A DNA stretch of 64,000 nt from Vicinamibacterales bacterium (GTDB lineage Bacteria > Acidobacteriota > Vicinamibacteria > Vicinamibacterales > 2-12-FULL-66-21): the NCBI GenBank assembly GCA_035250005.1, contig DATFFM010000184.1:14687-78686 (forward strand), read 5' to 3'. Below the pieces are notes generated by a model. The model searched no databases and was not told the origin of the DNA. It saw only the letters and a program-made list of their open reading frames with translations. A program made the position numbers and the translations under genes. This document shows positions 15,173-54,157 of this stretch, piece after piece; positions within the stretch are counted from its first letter, which is position 1, and each line of letters begins with the position of its first letter.

Positions 15173-16048
15173 ATGGCGCGAGGCTTCGCATTGCTCGCCG
15201 CTTTGACCATGCTGCCGCCGCAGGCCCCGGCGCAGGAGAAGGCCACGTTCCGCAGCGGCGTGCAGACGGTGATGCTCCACGCCACCGTCCGCAGCGACGA
15301 CGGGCATCTCGTGCCGGATCTCACCCGCGACGACTTCGAGGTCCGCGACGAAGGGCAGCCGGTCGAGATCACCGTCTTTTCCAGTGATCCCCAACCGATC
15401 ACCGTCGTTCTGCTCCTCGACATGAGCGGCAGCATGGAGCGCCACTTTCTTCGCGTCCGCGACTCGACGAGGCATTTCATCGACGCGCTGCAGCCGGGCG
15501 ACCGGGCGCGGATCGGCTCATTCGGCGTCGAGGTGGCGCTGAGCCCCTGGCTGACGAGCGACAAGCGCATCCTCCACCGTGTCGTCAGCGAGGAATTGTG
15601 GCCGGGGGGCGGCACGCCGCTGTGGAACAGCGTCTACGGCGCCATGCAGTCTCTCGATCGCGAAAGCGGGCGGCGGGTCATCCTGGCGCTGACCGACGGG
15701 ATCGGAAACATGGATCTCCCGGGGCTCGAGGGTTCGTCGCGCCAGGCGCGCGACAAGGCCGAGGATGACGGGTTCATGGTGTACGCGATCGGCGTCGAGG
15801 GCTCTCCCCTCGACGCCAGCATCACGAGCCTCGCGGAGCGCACCGGCGGCGGCTTCTTCAAGCTGGAGACGGGGGCCGACCTCTCGCGCACGTTTCTTCG
15901 CGTCGTCGAGGAACTGCGTCATCAGTACGTCATCGGCTTTGCGCCGCCGAAGGCGGACGGCAAGATGCACGACGTCGACGTGAAGGTGAAGAAGCCGCGG
16001 ATGACCGCACGGGCCCGCAAGAACTATCGCGCACCGGGCGGCAGGTGA
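15173..16048 (+). CDS. VWA-domain protein (acidobacterial VWFA-related type)
   Basis: Signal peptide. N-terminal FRSGVQTVMLHATVRS...DFEVRDEGQPVEI module. MIDAS-type motif LLLDMSGSM. C-terminal region HDVDVKVKKPRMTARARKNY. Confidence 0.85.
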   Translation: MARGFALLAALTMLPPQAPAQEKATFRSGVQTVMLHATVRSDDGHLVPDLTRDDFEVRDEGQPVEITVFSSDPQPITVVLLLDMSGSMERHFLRVRDSTRHFIDALQPGDRARIGSFGVEVALSPWLTSDKRILHRVVSEELWPGGGTPLWNSVYGAMQSLDRESGRRVILALTDGIGNMDLPGLEGSSRQARDKAEDDGFMVYAIGVEGSPLDASITSLAERTGGGFFKLETGADLSRTFLRVVEELRHQYVIGFAPPKADGKMHDVDVKVKKPRMTARARKNYRAPGGR

Positions 16049-16935
16049 TGCGCGCGGCAGCCTGCGCGACGTTGCTGGCGATTGCCGCCGGTCTGCCCCA
16101 CGCCGGTGGTCGCCCGGCCGTGCCCCGCGTCACGGTCCATGCGTGGGTGGAGAACGAGCGCGGCCTGCCGGCATCGGATCTCCAGCTCGAAGAGTTCGAG
16201 GTCCTCGTCGACCGCGCCGCGGTACCGCTGGAAGCTGTCGTCCCGCGCAGAGCGATGTCGGTGGTGGTGCTCCTCGATACCAGCCGAACGGTCCCGTGGA
16301 GCACGCAGACGCTCCCTCGGCACCTGGGCCAGTTCGCGGCCGCGCTCCCGCCAGATGACAGGCTCATGCTCGCAACCGTGGGCGGGCGATCGACCGCTCT
16401 TCCGTTTCAGCCCGCGAAGCACGATCTGCAAAGCGCCATCCGCCAGGCGCTGAACCATGAAGAGGGCTACGGCAACACGCCGATCTGGGACGCCCTGCAC
16501 GACGCGGTCACGCTCCTCGCCAGGGAGCCGCCGCCGCGGGCGGTCCTGCTGCTGACCGACGGACGAGCGACCGGGAACCGCTACGGCCTGGCGGAGTCAG
16601 CCGACCACGCGATGGCGAACGACGTGTCGGTGACCGTCGTGGCGAAGCACATCGGACGACAGATCCTCCAGGGGGAGAAGACCGCTGTGCTGGTTCAGCC
16701 CTGGGCGCCGCTTGAGGCAGTGACCCGGTATACAGGCGGGCAGTTCTTCACCTACCCCGAGCGGCAGGAGGAGGCGGCGGTCACGCTGTTCCAGGGGGCC
16801 GCGGCCTCGCTCCGCGGCCTGCACGCGTTCGGCTTCACCCCCGTGCAGCGGAACGGCGCAGCGCATCGACTCGAGATCCGTTCGAAGCGGCCCGGCCGCA
16901 TCGTGCACGCGCCCCTCGCATTTGTCGCACGCTGA
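16045..16935 (+). CDS. VWA-related paralogue (degenerate MIDAS)
   Basis: Same layout as the upstream gene (LQLEEFEVLVDRAAVPLE, VVLLDTSRT, LLLTDGRATGN). Its start overlaps the upstream stop (16045-16048). Confidence 0.75.
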   Translation: MMRAAACATLLAIAAGLPHAGGRPAVPRVTVHAWVENERGLPASDLQLEEFEVLVDRAAVPLEAVVPRRAMSVVVLLDTSRTVPWSTQTLPRHLGQFAAALPPDDRLMLATVGGRSTALPFQPAKHDLQSAIRQALNHEEGYGNTPIWDALHDAVTLLAREPPPRAVLLLTDGRATGNRYGLAESADHAMANDVSVTVVAKHIGRQILQGEKTAVLVQPWAPLEAVTRYTGGQFFTYPERQEEAAVTLFQGAAASLRGLHAFGFTPVQRNGAAHRLEIRSKRPGRIVHAPLAFVAR

Positions 16936-17063
16936 GTTAACTCCTGCCCCCTTGCCGTCGTATACAGCAACGGCGCCCTCATCGTGCGGGCGCGGCACAT
17001 AAATCAGCCGCCCGCACCAACCGTCCGAGCGCGGTGCTCGTCTACACGTAGCGGGCGGAGGCT

Positions 17064-17137
17064 GGGGTCAGATCTCGATTTTTCGGTCCCGCGGCGTGAA
17101 AACGCCGCGGAGTTTCGAAAAATCGAGATCTGACCCC
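17064..17137. repeat. 74-bp nested palindromic element (GGGGTCAGATCTCGATTTTTCG arms), intergenic copy
   Basis: Perfect 22-nt outer arms plus an inner GC stem (CCCGCGGCG-TGAAAA-CGCCGCGG). The arms are identical to those of the copy at 31915-31989. Confidence 0.9.
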
Positions 17138-17148
17138 AAACGATCCAG

Positions 17149-18033
17149 ATGCGCGGATTCGAACAACTCGCAGTGGTGTTGTGCGTTTGTGGGACGGTGG
17201 CGTTCGCGCAGCCGCCCGACGAACGGGCCGCGAAGGTGCTCGCCGACGCGCGCGCCGCCCTCGGCGGCGAAGCGAACCTGTCGGCGATCAAAAGCTTCAC
17301 CACCACCGGACGCACCCGCCGCGTCCAGGGTGAGAACCTGGTGCCCATCGAATTCGAGATGCTGGTCGAGCTCCCCGATAAATACCTGCGCAAGGACGAG
17401 ATCCCCGCGCAGGAAAGCGATCCGACGACCATCGGGTTCAACGGCGACGCGCTGCTGCAGATCCCGCCGCCGGCGCCCCCCACGCCACGACCCGGCATGC
17501 CGGCGCCGCCGCCCGGCCAGTTCGAAGCCATGCTCCAGCAGCGCACGCTGACCGCCCGGCAGGACTTCGCGCGATTGATGCTCGGCATGTTCGCCACGTC
17601 CTTTCAGGCGTACCCCCTGACCTTCAAGTACGTCGGCCAGGCCGAAGCGCCGCAGGGCAAGGCCAACGTGCTCGAGGCCACCGGCGCGAGCAACTTCAAG
17701 ATCCGCTTCTTCATCGACATCCAGACGAATCTGCCGATCATGGTGTCGTGGACGACGCCTGCCCGGCCGATGCCGGCGGGTCGCGGCGGACCGGGTGCTC
17801 CCTCCAGCCCCGGTGCCGCCGTACCGCCGGCCGCACCTCCCGCACCGCCGGCCGCGCCACCGTCGCCGCCGGAACAGCGTCTCTACTTCGCCGACTACCG
17901 CGACGTGGACGGCATCAAGCTCCCGTTCCGGCTGCGCCGTGGCGTGGGCGTGAACACCACCGAAGAGACCACCTTCGATCGTTTTCGCCTCAACCAGAAA
18001 ATCGATCCGCGCAGATTCGAGGTCAGGAAATGA
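17149..18033 (+). CDS. hypothetical secreted protein with proline-rich inserts
   Basis: Signal peptide LAVVLCVCGTVAFAQ. Pro/Ala-rich low-complexity tracts. Overlaps the next gene by ATGA. Confidence 0.6.
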   Translation: MRGFEQLAVVLCVCGTVAFAQPPDERAAKVLADARAALGGEANLSAIKSFTTTGRTRRVQGENLVPIEFEMLVELPDKYLRKDEIPAQESDPTTIGFNGDALLQIPPPAPPTPRPGMPAPPPGQFEAMLQQRTLTARQDFARLMLGMFATSFQAYPLTFKYVGQAEAPQGKANVLEATGASNFKIRFFIDIQTNLPIMVSWTTPARPMPAGRGGPGAPSSPGAAVPPAAPPAPPAAPPSPPEQRLYFADYRDVDGIKLPFRLRRGVGVNTTEETTFDRFRLNQKIDPRRFEVRK

Positions 18034-20676: not shown

Positions 20677-20765
20677 CAACTTCAAATCTCACACTTCACA
20701 CTCCAGACGGCGCTCTCTTCGTGGCTTCTTTGGCGTTTGGAATTTGAAGTTTGAAGTTGAAGTTG
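20677..20765. repeat. imperfect long hairpin of short A/T-containing repeats filling a convergent gap
   Basis: Left arm CAACTTCAAATCTCACACTTCACACTCCA. Right arm TGGAATTTGAAGTTTGAAGTTGAAGTTG. The hairpin lies inside the 96-nt convergent gap (20670-20765), starting 7 nt after the TGA at 20667-20669 and abutting the reverse-strand stop at 20766-20768. Confidence 0.7.
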
Positions 20766-24986: not shown

Positions 24987-25029
24987 GTGTCTGAGTGTAC
25001 CTGAGCGGCGACGGGTGCATGTGAGCGGC

Positions 25030-25174
25030 GAAGGGTGCACGTGCCAGGTGCAGGGTGCAGGGTGCGGTGCGGTGCACGTGCAGAGCAGTCCGTGCTGAGC
25101 AGTAGCGCACCTTGCACCTTGCAGCACGTGCACAGCACCGCACCTGCACCTTGCACCCGGCACGTGCACCCTTC
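25030..25174. repeat. ~145-bp imperfect palindrome built from GGTGCAG/GGTGCGG/GTGCACG short repeats
   Basis: Left arm 25030-25081 (GAAGGGTGCACGTGCCAGGTGCAGGGTGCAGGGTGCGGTGCGGTGCACGTGC). Right arm 25124-25174 is its near reverse complement. It lies between divergent start codons at 24986 and 25204. Confidence 0.85.
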
Positions 25175-25203
25175 ACGCCTCCAGTGGTACGCTGCCCTCT
25201 TCC

Positions 25204-26841
25204 ATGATCAGCTTCAACCGCATCAACAAGCAGTACGGCCGCCAGATCCTCTTCGTCGACGCCTCCTTCCAGCTGAATCCCGGTGAGAAAGTCGGTCTCG
25301 TCGGCCCCAACGGCGCCGGTAAGACCACACTCTTCCGCATGATCGTGGGCGAAGAGTCGGTGGACGACGGCGAGGTGTCGGTCCCGAAGAAGCTGACGAT
25401 CGGCTACTTCAGGCAGGACGTGGAGGAGATGTCCGGGCGCTCCGTCATCGACGAGGCGATCGCCGGCAGCGGCCGCGTCGGCGACCTTCATCACGAGCTC
25501 GAGGCGCTGAACCACGCGATGGCGGATCCCGGGCGCGCCGGCGAGATGGACCGGATCCTCGATCGGTTCGGCCACGTGCAGGAGGAGTACGAGCACCTCG
25601 GCGGGTATGCCCTCGAGAGCCAGGCGCGCGAGGTGCTGCACGGCCTCGGTTTCGCCGACGATCAGATCGACGGCGACGTCGGGGCCCTCTCGGGCGGATG
25701 GAAGATGCGGGTCGCGATGGCGCGCGTGCTGCTCGGGCGGCCAGACGTCCTGCTCATGGACGAGCCGACGAACCACCTCGACATCGAGTCGATCATCTGG
25801 CTCGAAGACTTCCTGAAGACGATGACCAGCTCGCTGCTCATGACGTCGCACGACCGCGATTTCATGAACCGGATCGTCTCGAAGATCGCCGAGATCGACG
25901 GCGGCGAGATCACGACCTACTCCGGCAACTACGACTTCTACGAGCGCGAGCGCGCGATCCGGGAGACCAACAAGGAAGCCGCCTACGCGCGGCAGCAGGC
26001 CATGCTCGCCAAGGAACAGCGCTTCATCGACCGCTTCAAAGCGCAGGCCGCCAAGGCGCCGCAGGTCCAGAGCCGCATCAAGGCGCTCGAGAAGATCGAG
26101 AAAGTGGAGCCGCCGAAGAAGCGCAAGGTGGTGGATTTCGACTTCCGCCAGCCCGCGCGGTCGGGCGAGCAGGTGGCCGTCGTCGAAGACGTGCACAAGG
26201 CGTACGGACGGCGGGTCGTGTACGACGGGTTGAGCCTCACCATCCGCCGCGGCGAGCGGTGGTGCGTCATGGGGCGCAACGGCGCCGGCAAGAGCACGCT
26301 GCTGAAGATGATCGCCGGCGCGGTCGCACCAGACTCGGGCAGGATCGAGGTCGGCGCGAGCGTGAAGATGGGCTACTTCGCGCAGCAGGCGCTGGACCTG
26401 CTCACCGCCGACCTCACCGTGTGGGAGCAGTTCGAGCAGGACTTTCCGCACGAGTCCATCGGGATGCTGCGCAACCTGCTCGGCGCCTTCCAGTTCTCAG
26501 GCGACGACGTGGAGAAGAAGGTCCGGGCGCTCTCCGGGGGGGAGAAGACGCGGCTGGTCATGGCGCGGATGCTGCTCCATCCGCCGAACTTTCTCGTGCT
26601 CGACGAGCCGACCAACCACCTCGATCTGGCAACGAAGGAGATGCTGGTCAAGGCGCTCGGTGATTTCGAGGGAACGATGCTGTTCGTGTCGCACGACCGG
26701 GCGTTCCTGCGCGGGCTCAGCAACCGCGTCCTCGAGCTCGGCGGCGAGAGCGGTGTCGATGCGCAGCCGCACGCATATCCAGGCTCGTACGTCGAGTACG
26801 TGCAGCGGACCGGTCACGAGGCGCCGGGGGTGCACGCGTAG
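25204..26841 (+). CDS. ABC-F family ATPase (two ABC domains, no TM domain)
   Basis: Two Walker A motifs (GPNGAGKTT, GRNGAGKST), two LSGG signatures (LSGGWKMR, LSGGEKTR), and a linker with KEAAYARQQAMLAKEQRFIDRF. Confidence 0.92.
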   Translation: MISFNRINKQYGRQILFVDASFQLNPGEKVGLVGPNGAGKTTLFRMIVGEESVDDGEVSVPKKLTIGYFRQDVEEMSGRSVIDEAIAGSGRVGDLHHELEALNHAMADPGRAGEMDRILDRFGHVQEEYEHLGGYALESQAREVLHGLGFADDQIDGDVGALSGGWKMRVAMARVLLGRPDVLLMDEPTNHLDIESIIWLEDFLKTMTSSLLMTSHDRDFMNRIVSKIAEIDGGEITTYSGNYDFYERERAIRETNKEAAYARQQAMLAKEQRFIDRFKAQAAKAPQVQSRIKALEKIEKVEPPKKRKVVDFDFRQPARSGEQVAVVEDVHKAYGRRVVYDGLSLTIRRGERWCVMGRNGAGKSTLLKMIAGAVAPDSGRIEVGASVKMGYFAQQALDLLTADLTVWEQFEQDFPHESIGMLRNLLGAFQFSGDDVEKKVRALSGGEKTRLVMARMLLHPPNFLVLDEPTNHLDLATKEMLVKALGDFEGTMLFVSHDRAFLRGLSNRVLELGGESGVDAQPHAYPGSYVEYVQRTGHEAPGVHA

Positions 26842-26938
26842 GAAAACGGGGACACTCAACTTTACGGTAACTGTTGATCCCGGTTCGTGCGGTCGGCCGG
26901 GATCATCAGTTACCGTAAAGTTGAGTGTCCCCGTTTCC
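26841..26938. repeat. ~98-bp near-perfect nested palindrome bridging two convergent genes
   Basis: Arms GAAAACGGGGACACTCAACTTTACGGTAACTG / CAGTTACCGTAAAGTTGAGTGTCCCCGTTTC (1-nt indel). Inner inverted repeat GATCCCGG...CCGGGATC. It starts at the last base of the ABC-F TAG and contains the last 11 codons and the stop of mug. Confidence 0.9.
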
Positions 26939-27493
26939 CCCAAGCGCCCGGAACGCCGCCAGCATCTCGGCGTAACTGAAATTCGCGTTACGGCCGCTCG
27001 GGTTCGGCAGCACGTGGACACGGGCGCCGTGGATCGTCACGGGCTGCCGGCCCGGACAGGCAACGCCCTTCAAAGCCGCCCTCGCCTCCGGATCGAGCTC
27101 CAGCAGCGGCAGGATCGCGCGCCATAGCGTCACGCCCACGAGCGCGACGACCTCGGGCTTGTAGCGGCGGATCTTGCGCTCGAGCATCTTCCACCCCGCG
27201 ACGTATTCGGACGGCGAGAGGGCGTCGATCCCCGGCGTCGGTCTCGCCACGAGATTCGTGATCCCGTAGCCGAACTCCGGCAGCCGCTCGTCGTCCGCGT
27301 ACGTGATCGGCTCGGGGACGAGCCCCGCCTCCCACAGCAGCTTCCAGAACCGGTTCGAGAATCCGGCGAAGTGGTGCCCGGTCTGCGCCGAGCGCACGCC
27401 CGGATTGATCCCGACGAACAGCACGCGCACGCCGGGCCCGATCCGGTCCTTGAGCCGGAGGTGCTCCCATGTGCGGCTATCATGTCGGGTCAT
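26906..27493 (-). CDS. mug: G/U mismatch-specific DNA glycosylase (Mug/TDG family)
   Basis: RVLFVGINPGVRSAQTGHHFAGFSNRFWKLL...NLVARPT...LPNPSGRN, characteristic of family-2 UDG. ATG at 27493; an alternative TTG lies at 27526. Confidence 0.85.
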   Translation of the reverse strand: MTRHDSRTWEHLRLKDRIGPGVRVLFVGINPGVRSAQTGHHFAGFSNRFWKLLWEAGLVPEPITYADDERLPEFGYGITNLVARPTPGIDALSPSEYVAGWKMLERKIRRYKPEVVALVGVTLWRAILPLLELDPEARAALKGVACPGRQPVTIHGARVHVLPNPSGRNANFSYAEMLAAFRALGGNGDTQLYGN

Positions 27494-30332: not shown

Positions 30333-30339
30333 GGGAACT

Positions 30340-30395
30340 CTGAATGCTGAACTCTGAACTCTGAACTCTGAATGCTGAACTCTGAAAGCTGACTG
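30340..30395. repeat. tandem heptanucleotide array CTGAAYK x8
   Basis: CTGAATG CTGAACT CTGAACT CTGAACT CTGAATG CTGAACT CTGAAAG CTGACTG read directly from the sequence. It lies between the stop at 30413 and the start at 30332 of two reverse-strand genes. Confidence 0.9.
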
Positions 30396-30412
30396 CCGAA
30401 CGGGCCCTGATG

Positions 30413-31338: not shown

Positions 31339-32631
31339 ATGGGCCGCACCTATAGGTGGATCGTGTTGCTGGTCGCGGCGGCGGCGATGGTCGGATCGCT
31401 CCCCGGCCGCACGCAGGGGCTGGGGCTCGTCACCGAGCCGCTCCTGGCGGAGCTCGGGATCGATCGCGTCAGCTACGCGGCCTTGAACTTCTGGGCGACG
31501 GTGATCGGATCCGGGGGCGCGCTGGGCATCGGCTACGCGGTGGACCGTCTGGGCAGCCGGATCGTGCTCACCAGCGTCCTGTTCGCGCTCGGTGCGGTCG
31601 TGTGCCTGATGAGTCTTTCGAGCTCATATGCGGCGCTCGCGGTCTGGATCACGTTGACGCGCGCGCTCGGGCAGAGCGCCCTGTCGGTGGTCTCCCTGGC
31701 AATCGTCGGGCACTGGTTCCTGCGGCGCATCGACAAGGCGATGGCGGTCTACAGCGTCGTCATCAGCATCGGATTCATGGCCGCGTTCCCGCTGGTGGGG
31801 TTCTCGGTGCAGGCTTGGGGCTGGCGCGCCGCCTGGATGGGAGTCGGGCTTGCCGTCGCCGCCGTCCTGGCGCCGCTCGCCTTCCTCATCGTCCGCCGAA
31901 GCCCGGAGGCGGTTGGGGTCAGATCTCGATTTTTCGAGTCCGGGCATGAGAAAGCACCGCCCGGACTCGAAAAATCGAGATCTGACCCCAAGGCTGCCAA
32001 CGCGCTGGCAGGCTACACCTGGACGGCGGCGCTTGCGATGCCGTCGTTCTGGGTCTTTGCGATCGGGACGGCGCTCTACGGCCTCGTGGCCTCGGGCATC
32101 GGGCTGTTCAACGAATCCATCCTGGCGGAGCGCGGGTTCGGCCCGGACGTCTACTACCAGACCCTCGCCGTCACCGCGATGACCGCACTCGCCGGCAACT
32201 TCCTCGGCGGATGGCTCTCGGCGCGCATCGCGCTCGGGCGGCTGATGGCCGTATCGCAGTTCATCCTGGCCGCGGGCGTCTTCGCGCTCCCCTTCGTCGG
32301 CACCATGGCCCACGTGCTGGCCTGGGCGGTCGCCATGGGCCTCGGCGGCGGACTGGTGATGGTGCTCTTCTTCAGTGTGTGGGGACGGGTCTTCGGACGC
32401 CTGCACCTGGGGCGCATCCAGGGAGTCGCACAGGCGCTGACGGTGCTCGCATCGGCCGTGGGCCCACTAATGGTGGCCTGGTGCCTCGAGTGGACCGGGA
32501 GCTACACCGCCGTGTTCCAGATCCTGTCCGCGGTGATCGGAGCGGCCGCGCTCGCCGCCCTGCTCGTGTCGCTGCCGGACGCACCTCCGGTCCTGAACAC
32601 GCTGAACCCCACCGGCGACACGGCCGGCTGA
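31339..32631 (+). CDS. MFS transporter carrying an in-frame palindromic-element insertion in the central loop
   Basis: About 12 hydrophobic helices in a 6+6 arrangement, with the MFS-like motif GYAVDRLGSR after TM2. The central loop contains the 25 codons encoded by the element at 31915-31989. Confidence 0.85.
   Translation: MGRTYRWIVLLVAAAAMVGSLPGRTQGLGLVTEPLLAELGIDRVSYAALNFWATVIGSGGALGIGYAVDRLGSRIVLTSVLFALGAVVCLMSLSSSYAALAVWITLTRALGQSALSVVSLAIVGHWFLRRIDKAMAVYSVVISIGFMAAFPLVGFSVQAWGWRAAWMGVGLAVAAVLAPLAFLIVRRSPEAVGVRSRFFESGHEKAPPGLEKSRSDPKAANALAGYTWTAALAMPSFWVFAIGTALYGLVASGIGLFNESILAERGFGPDVYYQTLAVTAMTALAGNFLGGWLSARIALGRLMAVSQFILAAGVFALPFVGTMAHVLAWAVAMGLGGGLVMVLFFSVWGRVFGRLHLGRIQGVAQALTVLASAVGPLMVAWCLEWTGSYTAVFQILSAVIGAAALAALLVSLPDAPPVLNTLNPTGDTAG
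31915..31989. repeat. 75-bp nested palindromic element inserted in frame inside the MFS gene
   Basis: Outer arms GGGGTCAGATCTCGATTTTTCG / CGAAAAATCGAGATCTGACCCC are identical to the copy at 17064-17137. The inner stem differs (TCCGGGC...GCCCGGA). 75 nt equals 25 codons with no stop; it translates as GVRSRFFESGHEKAPPGLEKSRSDP. Confidence 0.9.
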
Positions 32632-34939: not shown

Positions 34940-36100
34940 ATGTTCAAGCAGAGCCTGGGAGTTGTGCTCGCGATCCTGATTGCCGCCGCCGCGGCGGACG
35001 CCATTCCTGACGTTCGGAGCGAGCTCGCCGTTCACGAATGGGGCACCTTCACCACGGTGGCGGGGGAGGACGGCCGTGCGGTGGCCTGGCGGCCACTCGA
35101 TGGTCCCGTCGATCTGCCGTGCTTTGTCGAGCGCGCGGATCTGCCGCCGAAGCTTTCGTTCGTGACAACCGTCAGAATGGAAACGCCGGTGATCTATTTT
35201 TACGCGCCTCGGCCGCTCACGGTGGATGTGACCGTCGGCTTCAGGCAGGGAGTCGTGACCGAGTTCTTTCCGCGCCCCACCTCAATCCGCGAAGGCCGTC
35301 CAGATCTGCTCGGCCGGCCGGCGATGAGTCGTCTCGAATGGAACGGGATACAGCTGTTGCCGGGCGCGGCCGTGGATTTTCCCTCCGACGAGGCACCCAA
35401 CCACTACTACGCCGCCAGGGCGGCAGACGCGACGCCTCTACAGGTCGGCACGCAAAGAGAAGGCTTCCTGTTTTATCGAGGTGTCGGCGGCTTCGAGCTG
35501 CCGCTGCGGGCAACGGTCAATCCACATCGGGCCTTCAACATCACGAATGCCGGACTCGATCCGATGCCGGCGCTCATGGTCTTCGAAAACCGCGCAGGGC
35601 GCATCGGCTTTCGGACGAGCACGTCACCGGGCAGGCAGGTCACGATCCCGCCCCTCACGCTCGACAGCGGCATTGCCTCGGTCCGTGCGGCGCTTGTCGG
35701 CATGCTGGTCGCCGAGGGTCTGTACCTGCGGGAAGCAGAGGCGATGGTCGAGACGTGGAGCGGCTCCTGGTTCGAGGAAGGGGCACGGGTGTTCTATGTC
35801 GTGCCGAGACCGCTCGTCGATCACACGCTGCCGTTGAACATTCAGCCGGTGCCGGGGGTGGTCGAGCGCGTATTTGTCGGACGGCTGGAGGTCGCGACCC
35901 CGCAGCTGCTCGACGATCTCAGGGAAGCGTTCGCGGCACGCGATCACGAGACGCTGGCGGCGCATGGACGATTCCTCGAGCCCTTCGGTCGGCGGGTTCT
36001 CGACAGAGGTCTGCCGGCGGACGAACGCGCACAGATCCTCGCGGCATTGGCCGCCCCGATGAAGGGACCGCAGGCATACGGCTGCGCGATCGATCCCTAA
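34940..36100 (+). CDS. hypothetical secreted protein
   Basis: Signal peptide GVVLAILIAAAAADA. Coding-type codon bias. The stop TAA at 36098-36100 lies inside the first CCCTAAT repeat. Confidence 0.6.
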   Translation: MFKQSLGVVLAILIAAAAADAIPDVRSELAVHEWGTFTTVAGEDGRAVAWRPLDGPVDLPCFVERADLPPKLSFVTTVRMETPVIYFYAPRPLTVDVTVGFRQGVVTEFFPRPTSIREGRPDLLGRPAMSRLEWNGIQLLPGAAVDFPSDEAPNHYYAARAADATPLQVGTQREGFLFYRGVGGFELPLRATVNPHRAFNITNAGLDPMPALMVFENRAGRIGFRTSTSPGRQVTIPPLTLDSGIASVRAALVGMLVAEGLYLREAEAMVETWSGSWFEEGARVFYVVPRPLVDHTLPLNIQPVPGVVERVFVGRLEVATPQLLDDLREAFAARDHETLAAHGRFLEPFGRRVLDRGLPADERAQILAALAAPMKGPQAYGCAIDP

Positions 36101-36232
36101 TCCCTAATCCCTAATCCCTAATCCCTAATCCCTCATCTTCAGTCCGATCCCGAATCCCGAGTCCCGAATCGCAAGCCGATTGGGAACCCGGGATTAGGGA
36201 TTAAGGATTAGGGATTAAGGATTAGGGATTCG
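36095..36232. repeat. heptamer-repeat hairpin: (CCCTAAT)x5-CCCTCAT ... (GATTAGG/GATTAAG)x5
   Basis: Read directly from the sequence. There is an inner second hairpin (TCCCGAATCG-CAAGC-CGATTGGGA). It sits between a forward gene stop and the 3' end of the reverse-strand tRNA-Ser. Confidence 0.9.
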
Positions 36233-43480: not shown

Positions 43481-43557
43481 TGGCGCGCCCTGCATGACTC
43501 GAACATGCGACCTCCTGGTTCGTAGCCAGACGCTCTATCCAACTGAGCTAAGGGCGC
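43481..43557 (-). tRNA. tRNA-Arg (anticodon ACG), encoded CCA
   Basis: Reverse complement is GCGCCCTTAGCTCAGTTGGATAGAGCGTCTGGCTACGAACCAGGAGGTCGCATGTTCGAGTCATGCAGGGCGCGCCA. It forms a perfect cloverleaf with anticodon loop CTACGAA. Confidence 0.92.
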
Positions 43558-50916: not shown

Positions 50917-51009
50917 GGGGTCAGAGCTTGAATTTGTCGGGTCCTGAGAAATCATGCCAGCAATCTTGGCACCAAAAAAATGGCGGCGACAAATTCAAGC
51001 TCTGACCCC
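50917..51009. repeat. 93-bp palindromic element with GGGGTCAGA termini (variant arms GGGGTCAGAGCTTGAATTTGTCG)
   Basis: Perfect 23-nt arms. It shares the terminal TTGGGGTCAGA...TCTGACCCCAA with the copies at 17064 and 31915. Its right arm encodes the last four codons (GVRA) and the TGA of nadA. Confidence 0.9.
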
Positions 51010-52155
51010 CAACATCCGATCCAGCGCCAGCCGGGCGCCGCGCTTCTGATCCTCCGGGACGATGATCTGGTTGTGGATCGTGCCCTCGACCAGCCCCTCG
51101 AGGATCCACAGCAGGTGGTTGGGCGACACCCGGAACATCGTCGAGCACAGGCAGCCGAACGGATCGAGCGTCACGATCCTCTTGTCGGGTGCGAATTCGT
51201 TCGTGAGCCGGTTCACGAGGTGGACCTCGGTGGCCACCGCCCAGGTCGTGCCCGGCGGGCTGTTCTTCACGGCGTTGATGATGTACTCCGTGGAGCCGCT
51301 GTCATCGGACGCCTGCACCACGTCGAGCGTGCACTCCGGATGCGCGATGACCTTGCCCTCCGGATACTGCTTGCGGAACGCGTCGATCTGCTGGGTGGTG
51401 AAGCGCGTGTGAACCGAGCAGTGCCCCTTCCACAGGATCAGTCGGGCCTTCTGCAGCTGCTCCGCGGCGACGCCGCCCCACATCTCGTGGGGATCCCATA
51501 CAACCATCTCCGCGAGCGGGACACCCATCTTCCAGCCGGTATTGCGGCCCAGGTGCTGATCGGGCAGCATCAGCAGCTTCTCCCCGCGCTCCCACGCCCA
51601 CGTCATGACGGCGGCGGCGTTGGTCGAGGTGCAGACGATCCCGCCGTGGGCGCCCACGAACGCTTTGATGGCGGCGGACGAATTGATGTAGGTGACCGGG
51701 ACGATGCCCTGGCGTCCGTTCTCGACGGCGTCGGTGCGGATGCCCATCTGCTCGAGCTCGCGCCACGCGATCTCGAGCTGATCGGGCGCTGCCATGTCGG
51801 CCATGGAGCAGCCGGCCGCAAGGTCCGGCAGCACGACCTTCTGGTGCGGCGCCCGCAGGATGTCGGCGCTCTCGGCCATGAAATGGACGCCGCAGAAGAC
51901 GATGAATTCGGCCTCGTGCTTCGTGGCCGCGGCGCGCGCGAGCTTGAGCGAGTCGCCGGTGAAGTCGGCGAACTTGATGACCTCATCGCGCTGATAGTGA
52001 TGGCCCAGGATCACGACGCGGCTGCCGAGCGCCCGCTTGGCAGCCGCGATCCGCTCGTCCATCTCGTCGTCCGACAGACGCAGGTATTTCTCCGGGAGCG
52101 GCTGGCGCTCGCCGATGCTCTCCTTTTCGACCTGGTTCAGTAATTTGATGTCCAT
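50995..52155 (-). CDS. nadA: quinolinate synthase
   Basis: NadA blocks: ILGHHYQRDEVIKFADFTGDSLKLA, CGVHFMAESADIL, AGCSMADM, AHPEC, CSTM. Confidence 0.92.
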   Translation of the reverse strand: MDIKLLNQVEKESIGERQPLPEKYLRLSDDEMDERIAAAKRALGSRVVILGHHYQRDEVIKFADFTGDSLKLARAAATKHEAEFIVFCGVHFMAESADILRAPHQKVVLPDLAAGCSMADMAAPDQLEIAWRELEQMGIRTDAVENGRQGIVPVTYINSSAAIKAFVGAHGGIVCTSTNAAAVMTWAWERGEKLLMLPDQHLGRNTGWKMGVPLAEMVVWDPHEMWGGVAAEQLQKARLILWKGHCSVHTRFTTQQIDAFRKQYPEGKVIAHPECTLDVVQASDDSGSTEYIINAVKNSPPGTTWAVATEVHLVNRLTNEFAPDKRIVTLDPFGCLCSTMFRVSPNHLLWILEGLVEGTIHNQIIVPEDQKRGARLALDRMLGVRA

Positions 52156-53785: not shown

Positions 53786-53853
53786 CAACTTTTATTTTAG
53801 GTGATATTCTCGTCAGGCAACTGACGAGGAGCCGGCTCGCACGAACCGGCTCC

Positions 53854-54035
53854 GCCCGGCGGTCATGGAAGTGGGTGCAATGCCCACGCGGTGCCGCCAC
53901 TGTAAGCAGGGAGTGCGTTCCCTCGTCTGCGCTCACGTTCGGTGAGCTCAGGCGGCAGAAGCCACTGTGCAGCAATGCATGGGAAGGCAGGGAACGCCGA
54001 ACAGACCTGCGAGCCAGGATACCTGGCTGCCGGGC
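53854..54035 (+). promoter_or_regulatory. cobalamin (B12) riboswitch aptamer
   Basis: - GGAAGTGGGTGCAATGCCCACGCGGTGCCGCCACTGTAAGC matches the conserved core.
- AGCCACTG...GGGAAGGC box present.
- B12-box-like GAGCCAGGATACCTGGC present.
- P1 candidate GCCCGGC (53854-53860) pairs with GCCGGGC (54029-54035).
- It sits upstream of a btuB-like receptor. Confidence 0.75.
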
Positions 54036-54157
54036 TGGTCTCGCCCAAGCCGCCATTGACGGCGGCCGGCGGACCTGTCTCGCCGAAGCCGCGGTTTGTC
54101 GCGGCGAAGGCGGACCGTCCTTTTCCACGGCGCGTTACACGCCGCAAAGGAGCCCGC

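Follow-up and report, generated by a model that had tools for sequence, protein, structure and literature searches.

A probable terminal-inverted-repeat dimer carried in frame by a transporter gene of a Vicinamibacterales genome

The DNA analysed here is a stretch of 64,000 nucleotides (the window) from contig DATFFM010000184.1 of a Vicinamibacterales (Acidobacteriota) metagenome-assembled genome (MAG), with a G+C content of 64-71%. A gene for a transporter of the major facilitator superfamily (MFS) carries within its reading frame a long hairpin, hereafter element B, and two related copies, elements A and C, lie between genes of the same window (Table 1). Element B is most probably a dimer of terminal inverted repeats (TIRs) belonging to a TIRYT/RAYT system (RAYT, tyrosine transposase associated with repetitive extragenic palindromes or REPs), which lodged in a permissive linker of the transporter and is carried as a passenger peptide. 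According to this explanation, the hairpin of 75-79 nt would be a non-autonomous, REPIN-like doublet, in which two inverted arms of 22-23 nt surround a unique spacer, and the arms would derive from the TIRs of a unit of ~1.09 kb that encodes a Y1 (HUH) transposase with a C-terminal helix-turn-helix (HTH). The unit should be of the TIRYT type, TnpA-REP subclass 2.1, and should keep a conserved chromosomal position. The enzyme may spread the arms in trans via single-stranded DNA, as judged by analogy from IS200/IS605 TnpA and E. coli TnpA-REP, both of which cut hairpins of single-stranded DNA and join them again. Most copies would then settle between genes, the MFS copy being among the ~9% in coding DNA, where a copy would persist if the frame is kept, the arm frame is free of stops and the region tolerates insertion. 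The tolerant region of the transporter would be the disordered cytoplasmic linker between transmembrane helices 6 and 7 (TM6-TM7); the 25 residues added there are a putative passenger peptide, and the insertion would also have removed or replaced the codons of a conserved G(L/M)xxD motif.

The hairpin in the transporter gene

The stem of element B is formed by pairing of 31913-31945 with 31959-31991, 33 bp with 100% complementarity. The palindrome recognized in the initial annotation is thus real, but the perfect form is slightly longer than the 75 bp given there. The 75-nt core (31915-31989) is, as had been proposed, a multiple of three without a stop codon in the frame of the MFS open reading frame (ORF). 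The 22-nt arm GGGGTCAGATCTCGATTTTTCG has exactly four matches in the window, at 17064, 17116 (minus strand), 31915 and 31968 (minus strand), against ~0.01 expected by chance, in agreement with the claim that the MFS site and an intergenic copy at 17064-17137 have identical arms. Both copies named in that claim were recovered, but a third and diverged copy, element C, had been missed; the common head GGGGTCAGA has seven matches in the window vs 0.43 expected. Folding z-scores of the hairpin at the MFS site were -14.4 as DNA and -14.9 as RNA, with none of 200 shuffled sequences folding as well, and the hairpin in the mRNA amounts to -65.8 kcal/mol. The stem is not followed on its 3' side by a run of T. 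The inner stem is perfect over 9 bp in element B, while that of element A comprises 8 bp with an asymmetric junction, and the two interiors differ. That the inner stems differ and yet are each self-complementary had been taken as an argument that a hairpin is selected or copied; the observation stands for these two copies, but it is not a rule of the family, because about half of 73 members examined have only 0-1 bp of stem extension beyond the arms.

The product of the host ORF matched Pfam MFS_1 (E=5e-28), and its 430 residues are identical to an MFS transporter deposited at NCBI for a Vicinamibacterales MAG and encoded there on a contig of 95 kb. Thirty orthologues with 73-83% identity were aligned from end to end except for the stretch from 'RRSPEA' to 'LAGYTW'. 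In an AlphaFold model built on the orthologue alignment, twelve long helices were predicted, and the sole long unstructured stretch of low confidence is residues 188-223, the central TM6-TM7 linker between the two helix bundles. The residues encoded by the element (193-217, G193-P217) fall inside this stretch, so that the placement in the loop between the two halves, as predicted from the sequence at the outset, is supported by the model.

Loop sequences were parsed from 107 orthologues, with lengths of 14-48 aa, and the window loop of 31 aa is within this range. The 25 residues encoded by the element were found in none of the other 106 parsed loops. All of these 106 loops start with (I/V/M/A)G(L/M)x(P/T/A)D, the window protein being the sole exception: the G(L/M)xxD motif that follows 'PE' is missing in this protein alone, VG being followed directly by the element, and about five conserved loop codons are gone. 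The insertion is therefore not the clean addition of 25 codons that had been assumed. All other invariant residues of the orthologue alignment are kept. The DNA CCGGAGGCG of the MFS gene is what an empty allele would join directly to a loop of the G(L/M)xxD type. With respect to the G+C content at third codon positions (GC3), the 31 codons of the window loop reach only 0.55, compared with 0.88 in the gene and 0.95 in the corresponding loop codons of the closest orthologue, which fits a non-coding origin; on both sides of the element within the ORF, GC3 is 0.88-0.92. The gene is otherwise intact and well conserved; as G(L/M)xxD is missing solely in this protein, continued function of the transporter is no more than plausible. 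The gene order downstream of the MFS gene agrees with that on orthologue contigs.

The loop DNA of 12 orthologues (loci are designated by L numbers) was compared with that of the window (Table 1). At least four distinct types of repeat DNA occur in frame in the linker, which tolerates and repeatedly accumulates them. The heptamer GGGGTCA is shared at this loop site only by L177 (strong) and L094 (weak). The repeat of L177 is a nested palindrome based on GGGTCAGACCC, again in frame in the MFS loop. The GGCCGGCTGAAGCCGGCC hairpin of L095 and L096, a second hairpin family that is absent from the window, is translated as GRLKPA...AGFSRP, and L096 looks like a decayed copy beside a newer copy of the same family. 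The peptides DVRS, GGVRP, GSDP and SSDP in loops of other orthologues were considered as decayed termini of the element, a possibility ruled out by the DNA of L181-L184.

The repeat family and its transposase unit

For a survey of the family, the pattern GGGGTCAGANCTNGANTTTN{0,1}TCG was searched for in one genome per species. At least 93 loci were obtained, nearly all in MAGs of Acidobacteriota/Vicinamibacterales, and several well assembled MAGs contained at least 7-11 loci each; the arm is thus repeated beyond the copies from which the initial annotation had set out. Among the matches listed, the elements are built of inverted arms of ~23 nt and interiors of 2-59 nt, with a total length of 39-105 nt, and most of the listed loci are pairs of a left (L) and a right (R) arm 39-105 nt apart, some being nested or clustered in the order L-L-R-R. 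The family consensus and all three window copies start with GGGGTCAG. Self-complementarity within the arm GGGGTCAGATCTCGATTTTTCG is restricted to the 6-bp AGATCT, and its head is GGGG. In ~1 Mb of related loci, no further occurrence of the interior of any of the three window copies was found. No target-site duplication was detected, direct repeats being absent around 68 short elements and seven full units. The flanks of elements are more complementary to each other than expected (3.7 matches in 10 nt, compared with 2.7 ± 0.16 in shuffled pairings), and flank position -1 is enriched in T/C and position +1 in A/G. Element lengths modulo 3 (0:1:2) were distributed as 34:15:25, a ratio not used as evidence since copies of one subfamily are not independent.

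Clustered arms were observed at L053 (2400-2582 and 6699-6922), L072 (5474-5685) and L036 (1067-1284), in the orders L-L-R-R, L-L-L-R-R-R-R and a single L preceding four R. Such arrangements suggest that elements inserted into the interiors of existing ones, or that arms were amplified locally. In addition, a 13-nt palindrome, GGGGTCAGACCCC, with the head and tail of the family terminus, adjoins full elements at L045 (7660-7700) and L085 (4967-4990), and occurs six times in 0.7 Mb of the sequence examined. Arms were located within 40 nt of contig ends at L017, L046, L047 and L088, and many MAG contigs stop inside an arm; short-read assemblies of these genomes are evidently interrupted by the repeat family.

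Insertion in frame is not unique to the transporter. Long ORFs with a coding-type GC3 on either side run through seven of 74 simple elements (9%, among the matches listed); the six outside the window are given in Table 1. All three reading frames of the arms are used, the left arm being translated as GVRSRF, GSDLDF or GQISIF and the right arm as KSRSDP or ENRDLTP; a stop codon occurs in only one of the six arm frames, leaving five open. A 30-position profile of both palindrome translations, which with ~14 informative residues was underpowered, gave no match at E<=0.001 among 1.84 billion representatives.

The initial annotation had recommended a search for a mobilizing enzyme of the RAYT or IS200 kind, and such a gene was found in related genomes, where the arms are the TIRs of a Y1 transposase gene. 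At L004, two inverted arms 1,078 bp apart enclose a single ORF in the order arm, 172 nt, ORF, arm, and the ORF product matched Pfam Y1_Tnp with 43.6 bits (cutoff 23). A homologue with 49% identity to this product, from another Vicinamibacterales MAG (L030), is likewise enclosed by arms. In each of the two cases the ORF extends into the right arm and ends at the arm's own TGA. As an independent test, metagenome contigs were searched only with the alignment of the transposase proteins, the arms being ignored in selection. All seven close relatives with >=52% identity (L097-L101, L115 and L119) carried a left arm 180-230 nt upstream, and a right arm overlapped the 3' end of the ORF wherever the contig reached that far; relatives selected by protein at <=45% identity were without these arms. 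Both arms are present at L004, L030, L097-L100 and L119, and only the left arm at L101 and L115, whose contigs are cut. The gene between the arms is a Y1/HUH tyrosine transposase in nine out of nine cases; the full unit measures ~1.09 kb and the proteins ~295-302 aa.

In the alignment of the transposase family, the HUH motif (H70/H72) is invariant, as is the catalytic Y129 of YIxxNP, and a conserved block, GYTLxEIxxxxGRSPxT, is located at the C terminus; the family profile also gave a weak match resembling sigma-70 region 4. More than 4,000 relatives of the transposase were found, many of them named RayT by JGI and many with C-terminal matches to Pfam HTH_23/28/38. Among solved structures, the family profile found only E. 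coli TnpA-REP 4er8 (E=0.0015); a single-sequence phmmer search of the PDB gave no match, so that the profile was needed. Flanking genes with 60-87% identity are common to five or six transposase loci, suggesting a fixed chromosomal site of the unit, and only two transposase genes are among the at least 93 arm-bearing loci listed.

At L119 (1026-1608), a transposase unit reduced to 583 nt by internal deletion has kept its arms intact, and the N-terminal ~95 codons run on, in a different frame, into the end that encodes the C-terminal HTH; this locus stands as an intermediate between full unit and short elements. The origin of the interiors by such deletion was considered and rejected: the interiors of short copies of the MAG that contains L004 do not match the subterminal sequence of its unit and, although L119 indicates that deletions happen, no window interior was met again in the related loci. 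Element A was also considered as the site of a lost transposase unit, and this was dismissed, because no gene of the window corresponds to those that flank the transposase units.

Table 1. Features of the window, repeats in the central loop of orthologous transporters, and family members in frame in other genes
Feature	Positions	Strand	Remarks
Element A	17063-17138		Intergenic; core 17064-17137; arms identical to those of B, interior CCGCGGCG TGAAAA CGCCGCGG
Host gene, MFS transporter	31339-32631	+	12-helix, 430 aa; intact ORF, GC3 0.88
Element B	31913-31991		In frame in MFS gene; complete perfect hairpin, 33-bp stem and 13-nt loop
Left arm (TIR) of B	31915-31936	+	GGGGTCAGATCTCGATTTTTCG; head GGGGTCAG fits TIRYT motif GGGGWSAS
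Interior of B	31937-31967		9-bp inner stem AGTCCGGGC/GCCCGGACT around 13-nt loop; not in any other family member examined
Right arm (TIR) of B	31968-31989	-	Exact reverse complement of left arm
Element C	50917-51009		Diverged; from repeat finder; arms GGGGTCAGAGCTTGAATTTGTCG, 47-nt interior without strong inner stem
nadA	50995-52155	-	Quinolinate synthase; GC3 0.91
Window MFS loop			TIR dimer
L177 MFS loop			GGGGTCAGACCCGGG...CCCGGGTCTGAC palindrome, z = -6.7, from G codon of PDG, same G-V-R frame
L094 MFS loop			GGGGTCAACCCACCGGACCC two codons after PDG
L095, L096 MFS loops			Different hairpin, GGCCGGCTGAAGCCGGCC/GGCCGGCTTCAGCCGGCC
L179, L180 MFS loops			Small palindromes of CCGCCTTCGCT/AGCGAAGGCGG type and tandem repeats
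L178, L181-L184 MFS loops			No recognisable repeat
L071, UvrA			Clean ~21-residue insert relative to PDB 2r6f
L042, ABC ATPase			Insert inside ABC_tran domain
L038, MeaB GTPase
L074, class-V aminotransferase/kynureninase
L065, PSD-family protein
L007, membrane protein			Without Pfam check

Competing explanations and related systems

Several points weigh against the assignment of element B as a TIR dimer of a TIRYT/RAYT system. The best NCBIfam match of the L004 ORF, the REP-associated tyrosine transposase model NF047646, reached 75.2 bits and remained below the cutoff of 80, and no such transposase gene is present within the 64-kb window. Movement of the repeats by a TIRYT enzyme is so far only presumed, by analogy. 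The arm itself does not form a hairpin, unlike classical REPs. The unique spacers imply that the copies are not simple copy-and-paste products of one master, which leaves the origin of the dimers unexplained. Finally, the insertion with its loss of G(L/M)xxD is not reconstructable base by base, because there is no empty-site allele of the MFS gene and the nearest orthologue is only 83% identical.

One extension of this assignment concerns the loop itself. The codons after PDG might be a recurrent, possibly targeted, landing site for several unrelated types of hairpin and tandem repeat, with the arms paired de novo, a proposal that we regard as tentative and rather doubtful. Pairing de novo would follow from the unique spacer of each copy together with the nested L-L-R-R arrangement; it could proceed through insertion within or beside hairpins already present, or through fold-back synthesis, unlike the replication of REPINs as whole units. 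If the codons are such a site, colonisation and decay of repeats, and not point mutation, may be behind most of the variation in loop length between 14 and 48 aa.

Inactivation or impairment of the transporter by a recent insertion and the loss of G(L/M)xxD, leaving a nascent pseudogene, is unlikely. Such an event would agree with the absence of the motif from the window protein alone, with the young age suggested by arms that are perfectly paired and 100% identical to those of another copy, and with the very stable hairpin in the mRNA. However, the ORF has remained open with a high GC3 on both sides of the element, all 12 helices are predicted and the other invariant residues are kept; moreover, loops of widely different length with other repeats occur in orthologues, and elsewhere members of the family are read in frame within UvrA, MeaB and an ABC ATPase.

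A structure in RNA or DNA selected by the host, such as a 3'-end stabiliser, a terminator or a protein-binding site, with a role of the MFS copy in, for instance, translational pausing, is very unlikely. The extreme stability of the stems and the position of elements A and C at the 3' ends of genes, where C supplies the stop codon of nadA, are in line with it, as are classical REPs, described as elements of 3'-untranslated regions in the part of the literature available; but the element is present in the loop of only one of 107 orthologues, the interiors are unique and often unpaired, no run of T follows the stem, and the family tracks the transposase gene. Survival in a hypervariable linker can be explained without a role in the coding sequence.

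A classical MITE (miniature transposable element with inverted repeats), that is, a deleted derivative of a DDE-type insertion sequence (IS) moved by cut-and-paste via its TIRs, is extremely unlikely. Like Correia/NEMIS, Nezha, RUP and ERIC, the elements are short, bounded by TIRs and stable as hairpins, with occasional fusion to ORFs; their TIRs are of 22-23 nt, their interiors are variable, and at L119 the same arms enclose a transposase unit that has undergone internal deletion. MITEs are nevertheless distinguished by target-site duplications and a DDE IS origin, neither of which holds here: no duplication accompanies short elements or full units, the only gene between the arms is a Y1/HUH transposase (9/9) that is syntenic and not scattered, and the interiors of short copies are unlike the subterminal sequence of the full unit in the same MAG. 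An artefact of assembly or binning, by which a repeat was collapsed or mis-joined into the MFS gene, is scarcely credible: arms at contig ends do indicate that the repeat disturbs assemblies, but on both sides the sequence is collinear with one and the same orthologous gene, whose frame is kept, the downstream gene order matches orthologue contigs, the deposited protein is identical, and in-frame copies exist in other genes of independent assemblies.

The nearest described system for a TIR dimer of this kind is that of the TIRYTs or 'TIRtrons', RAYT-like genes flanked by TIRs and not by REPs (Di Nocera, De Gregorio & Rocco 2013; PMC3733652). According to the available part of that study, many of the TIRs carry GGGGWSAS, a motif reported also in the available part of PMC6006769, some TIRs overlap the gene 3' end, some are dispersed families organised as dimers, and a sharply defined group of TIRYTs is formed by Acidobacteria; TIRYTs were later classified as TnpA-REP subclass 2.1, defined by the C-terminal HTH (Quentin et al. 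2018; PMC6006769, available part). The units of the related genomes agree in that a Y1 transposase longer than classical RAYTs, with a C-terminal HTH, is bounded by TIRs, that the head GGGGTCAG fits GGGGWSAS, that the downstream TIR overlaps the gene 3' end, that dispersed TIRs are mostly inverted dimers, and that an Acidobacteria group had been described already in the part of PMC3733652 cited above. They differ in that Vicinamibacterales, an order represented mainly by MAGs, and this arm sequence do not appear in the available parts of PMC3733652 and PMC6006769, where intragenic copies are reported for REPs of the GTAG/CGTC types and not for TIR dimers.

With the REPIN-RAYT system (Bertels & Rainey 2011; Nunvar 2010; Ton-Hoang 2012), the family shares non-autonomous inverted doublets that form long hairpins and a cognate HUH/Y1 transposase flanked by the same repeats at a syntenic, probably fixed position. 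It differs in an arm that is not palindromic and lacks a GTAG/GTGG (or CGTC) head, in spacers that are unique to each copy and not conserved within the family, in the additional C-terminal HTH, and in the score below the cutoff of the RAYT model. IS200/IS605 elements lack TIRs and have subterminal hairpins, their TnpA measures ~130-150 aa and their multiple copies are scattered; the TIR ends, the ~295-aa protein and the syntenic loci found here are different.

The element had been compared in the initial annotation with the Rickettsia palindromic elements (RPEs; Ogata et al. 2000), and this likeness applies to behaviour but not to family. RPEs, as well as intragenic REPs, are palindromes inserted in frame, within genes that look functional, that encode ~20-30 residues at tolerant sites. 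RPEs are 100-150 bp in length, and no transposase is mentioned in the part of the source available, whereas the present elements measure 39-105 nt and are associated with a Y1 transposase, with a small in-frame fraction (~9% among the matches listed). Element B is set apart from RPEs by its size (75 nt) and host, and membership in an RPE family is not claimed. The suggestion that such an insertion was new to GC-rich genomes went too far: in the available text of PMC3733652, REPs wholly inside ORFs are reported for several species (Opitutus, Thauera, Stenotrophomonas and others), GC-rich ones included, often as dimers encoding 20-30 residues and notably in uvrA and other repair genes. In the same text, REP ends are described as donating stop codons, and such cases are set in relation to Rickettsia RPEs; the present family resembles these REPs in its uvrA host (L071) and in repeat ends that donate stops. 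Further in-frame repeat fusions are covered in a review by Delihas.

The kind of element is therefore already known, and the family of Vicinamibacterales arms is a fresh example of it; no mention of this arm family or of Vicinamibacterales repeats was found in the literature searched. An uncharacterised repeat family is thereby linked to its likely mobilising enzyme in a major, mostly uncultured soil lineage, and the little-studied TIRYT class is extended by dispersed TIR dimers in the hundreds, an intermediate formed by deletion, and copies read in frame within housekeeping genes such as UvrA and MeaB. For annotation, GVRSRF...KSRSDP, GSDLDF...ENRDLTP and GRLKPA...AGFSRP in proteins of GC-rich soil bacteria should be read as translated repeats, which also break assemblies. 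A recurrent landing site in the loop, if true, would offer a natural system in which selfish hairpin DNA creates variation of linker length in membrane proteins.

Other copies and hairpins of the window

Element A is situated between a gene for a VWA-domain protein (16045-16935, plus strand) and an ORF at 17149-18033 (plus strand). Element C lies between nadA and a gene for Fe/Mn superoxide dismutase, both on the minus strand, and its right arm (50995-51009) supplies the last four codons (GVRA) and the TGA stop of nadA. Both copies are thus placed at 3' ends of genes.

A second long hairpin of a different sequence family, with 43-nt arms that are 95% complementary, was observed at 26841-26939, exactly between the stop codons of two convergent genes, one for an ABC-F-type ATPase (25204-26841, plus strand) and one of the UDG superfamily (27526-26906, minus strand). 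The TIRYT motif GGGGWSAS is also matched by GGGGACAC, a sequence present in its arms. An intergenic hairpin of heptamer arrays is located at 36093-36230, where ATCCCTA is repeated 6.4 times and followed ~55 nt later by the inverted GGGATTA, repeated 5.9 times; no ORF spans it. The intergenic segment 6235-6555 contains two direct copies, ~200 nt apart, of a ~115-nt unit, each forming a hairpin with arms made of short TTCGTG / CACGAAG arrays. Further intergenic structures of short tandem units are found at 25000-25185, 20677-20759 and 30335-30401, and consist of inverted GGTGCA(G/C)G arrays, CAACTTCAAA / TTTGAAGTTG arms and a GAACTCT(GAATGCT) tandem. The genome seems to be rich in simple-repeat hairpins between genes. 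A cobalamin riboswitch (53844-54044, plus strand, 67 bits) and a tRNA gene (43484-43557, minus strand) were also identified, both of ordinary type.

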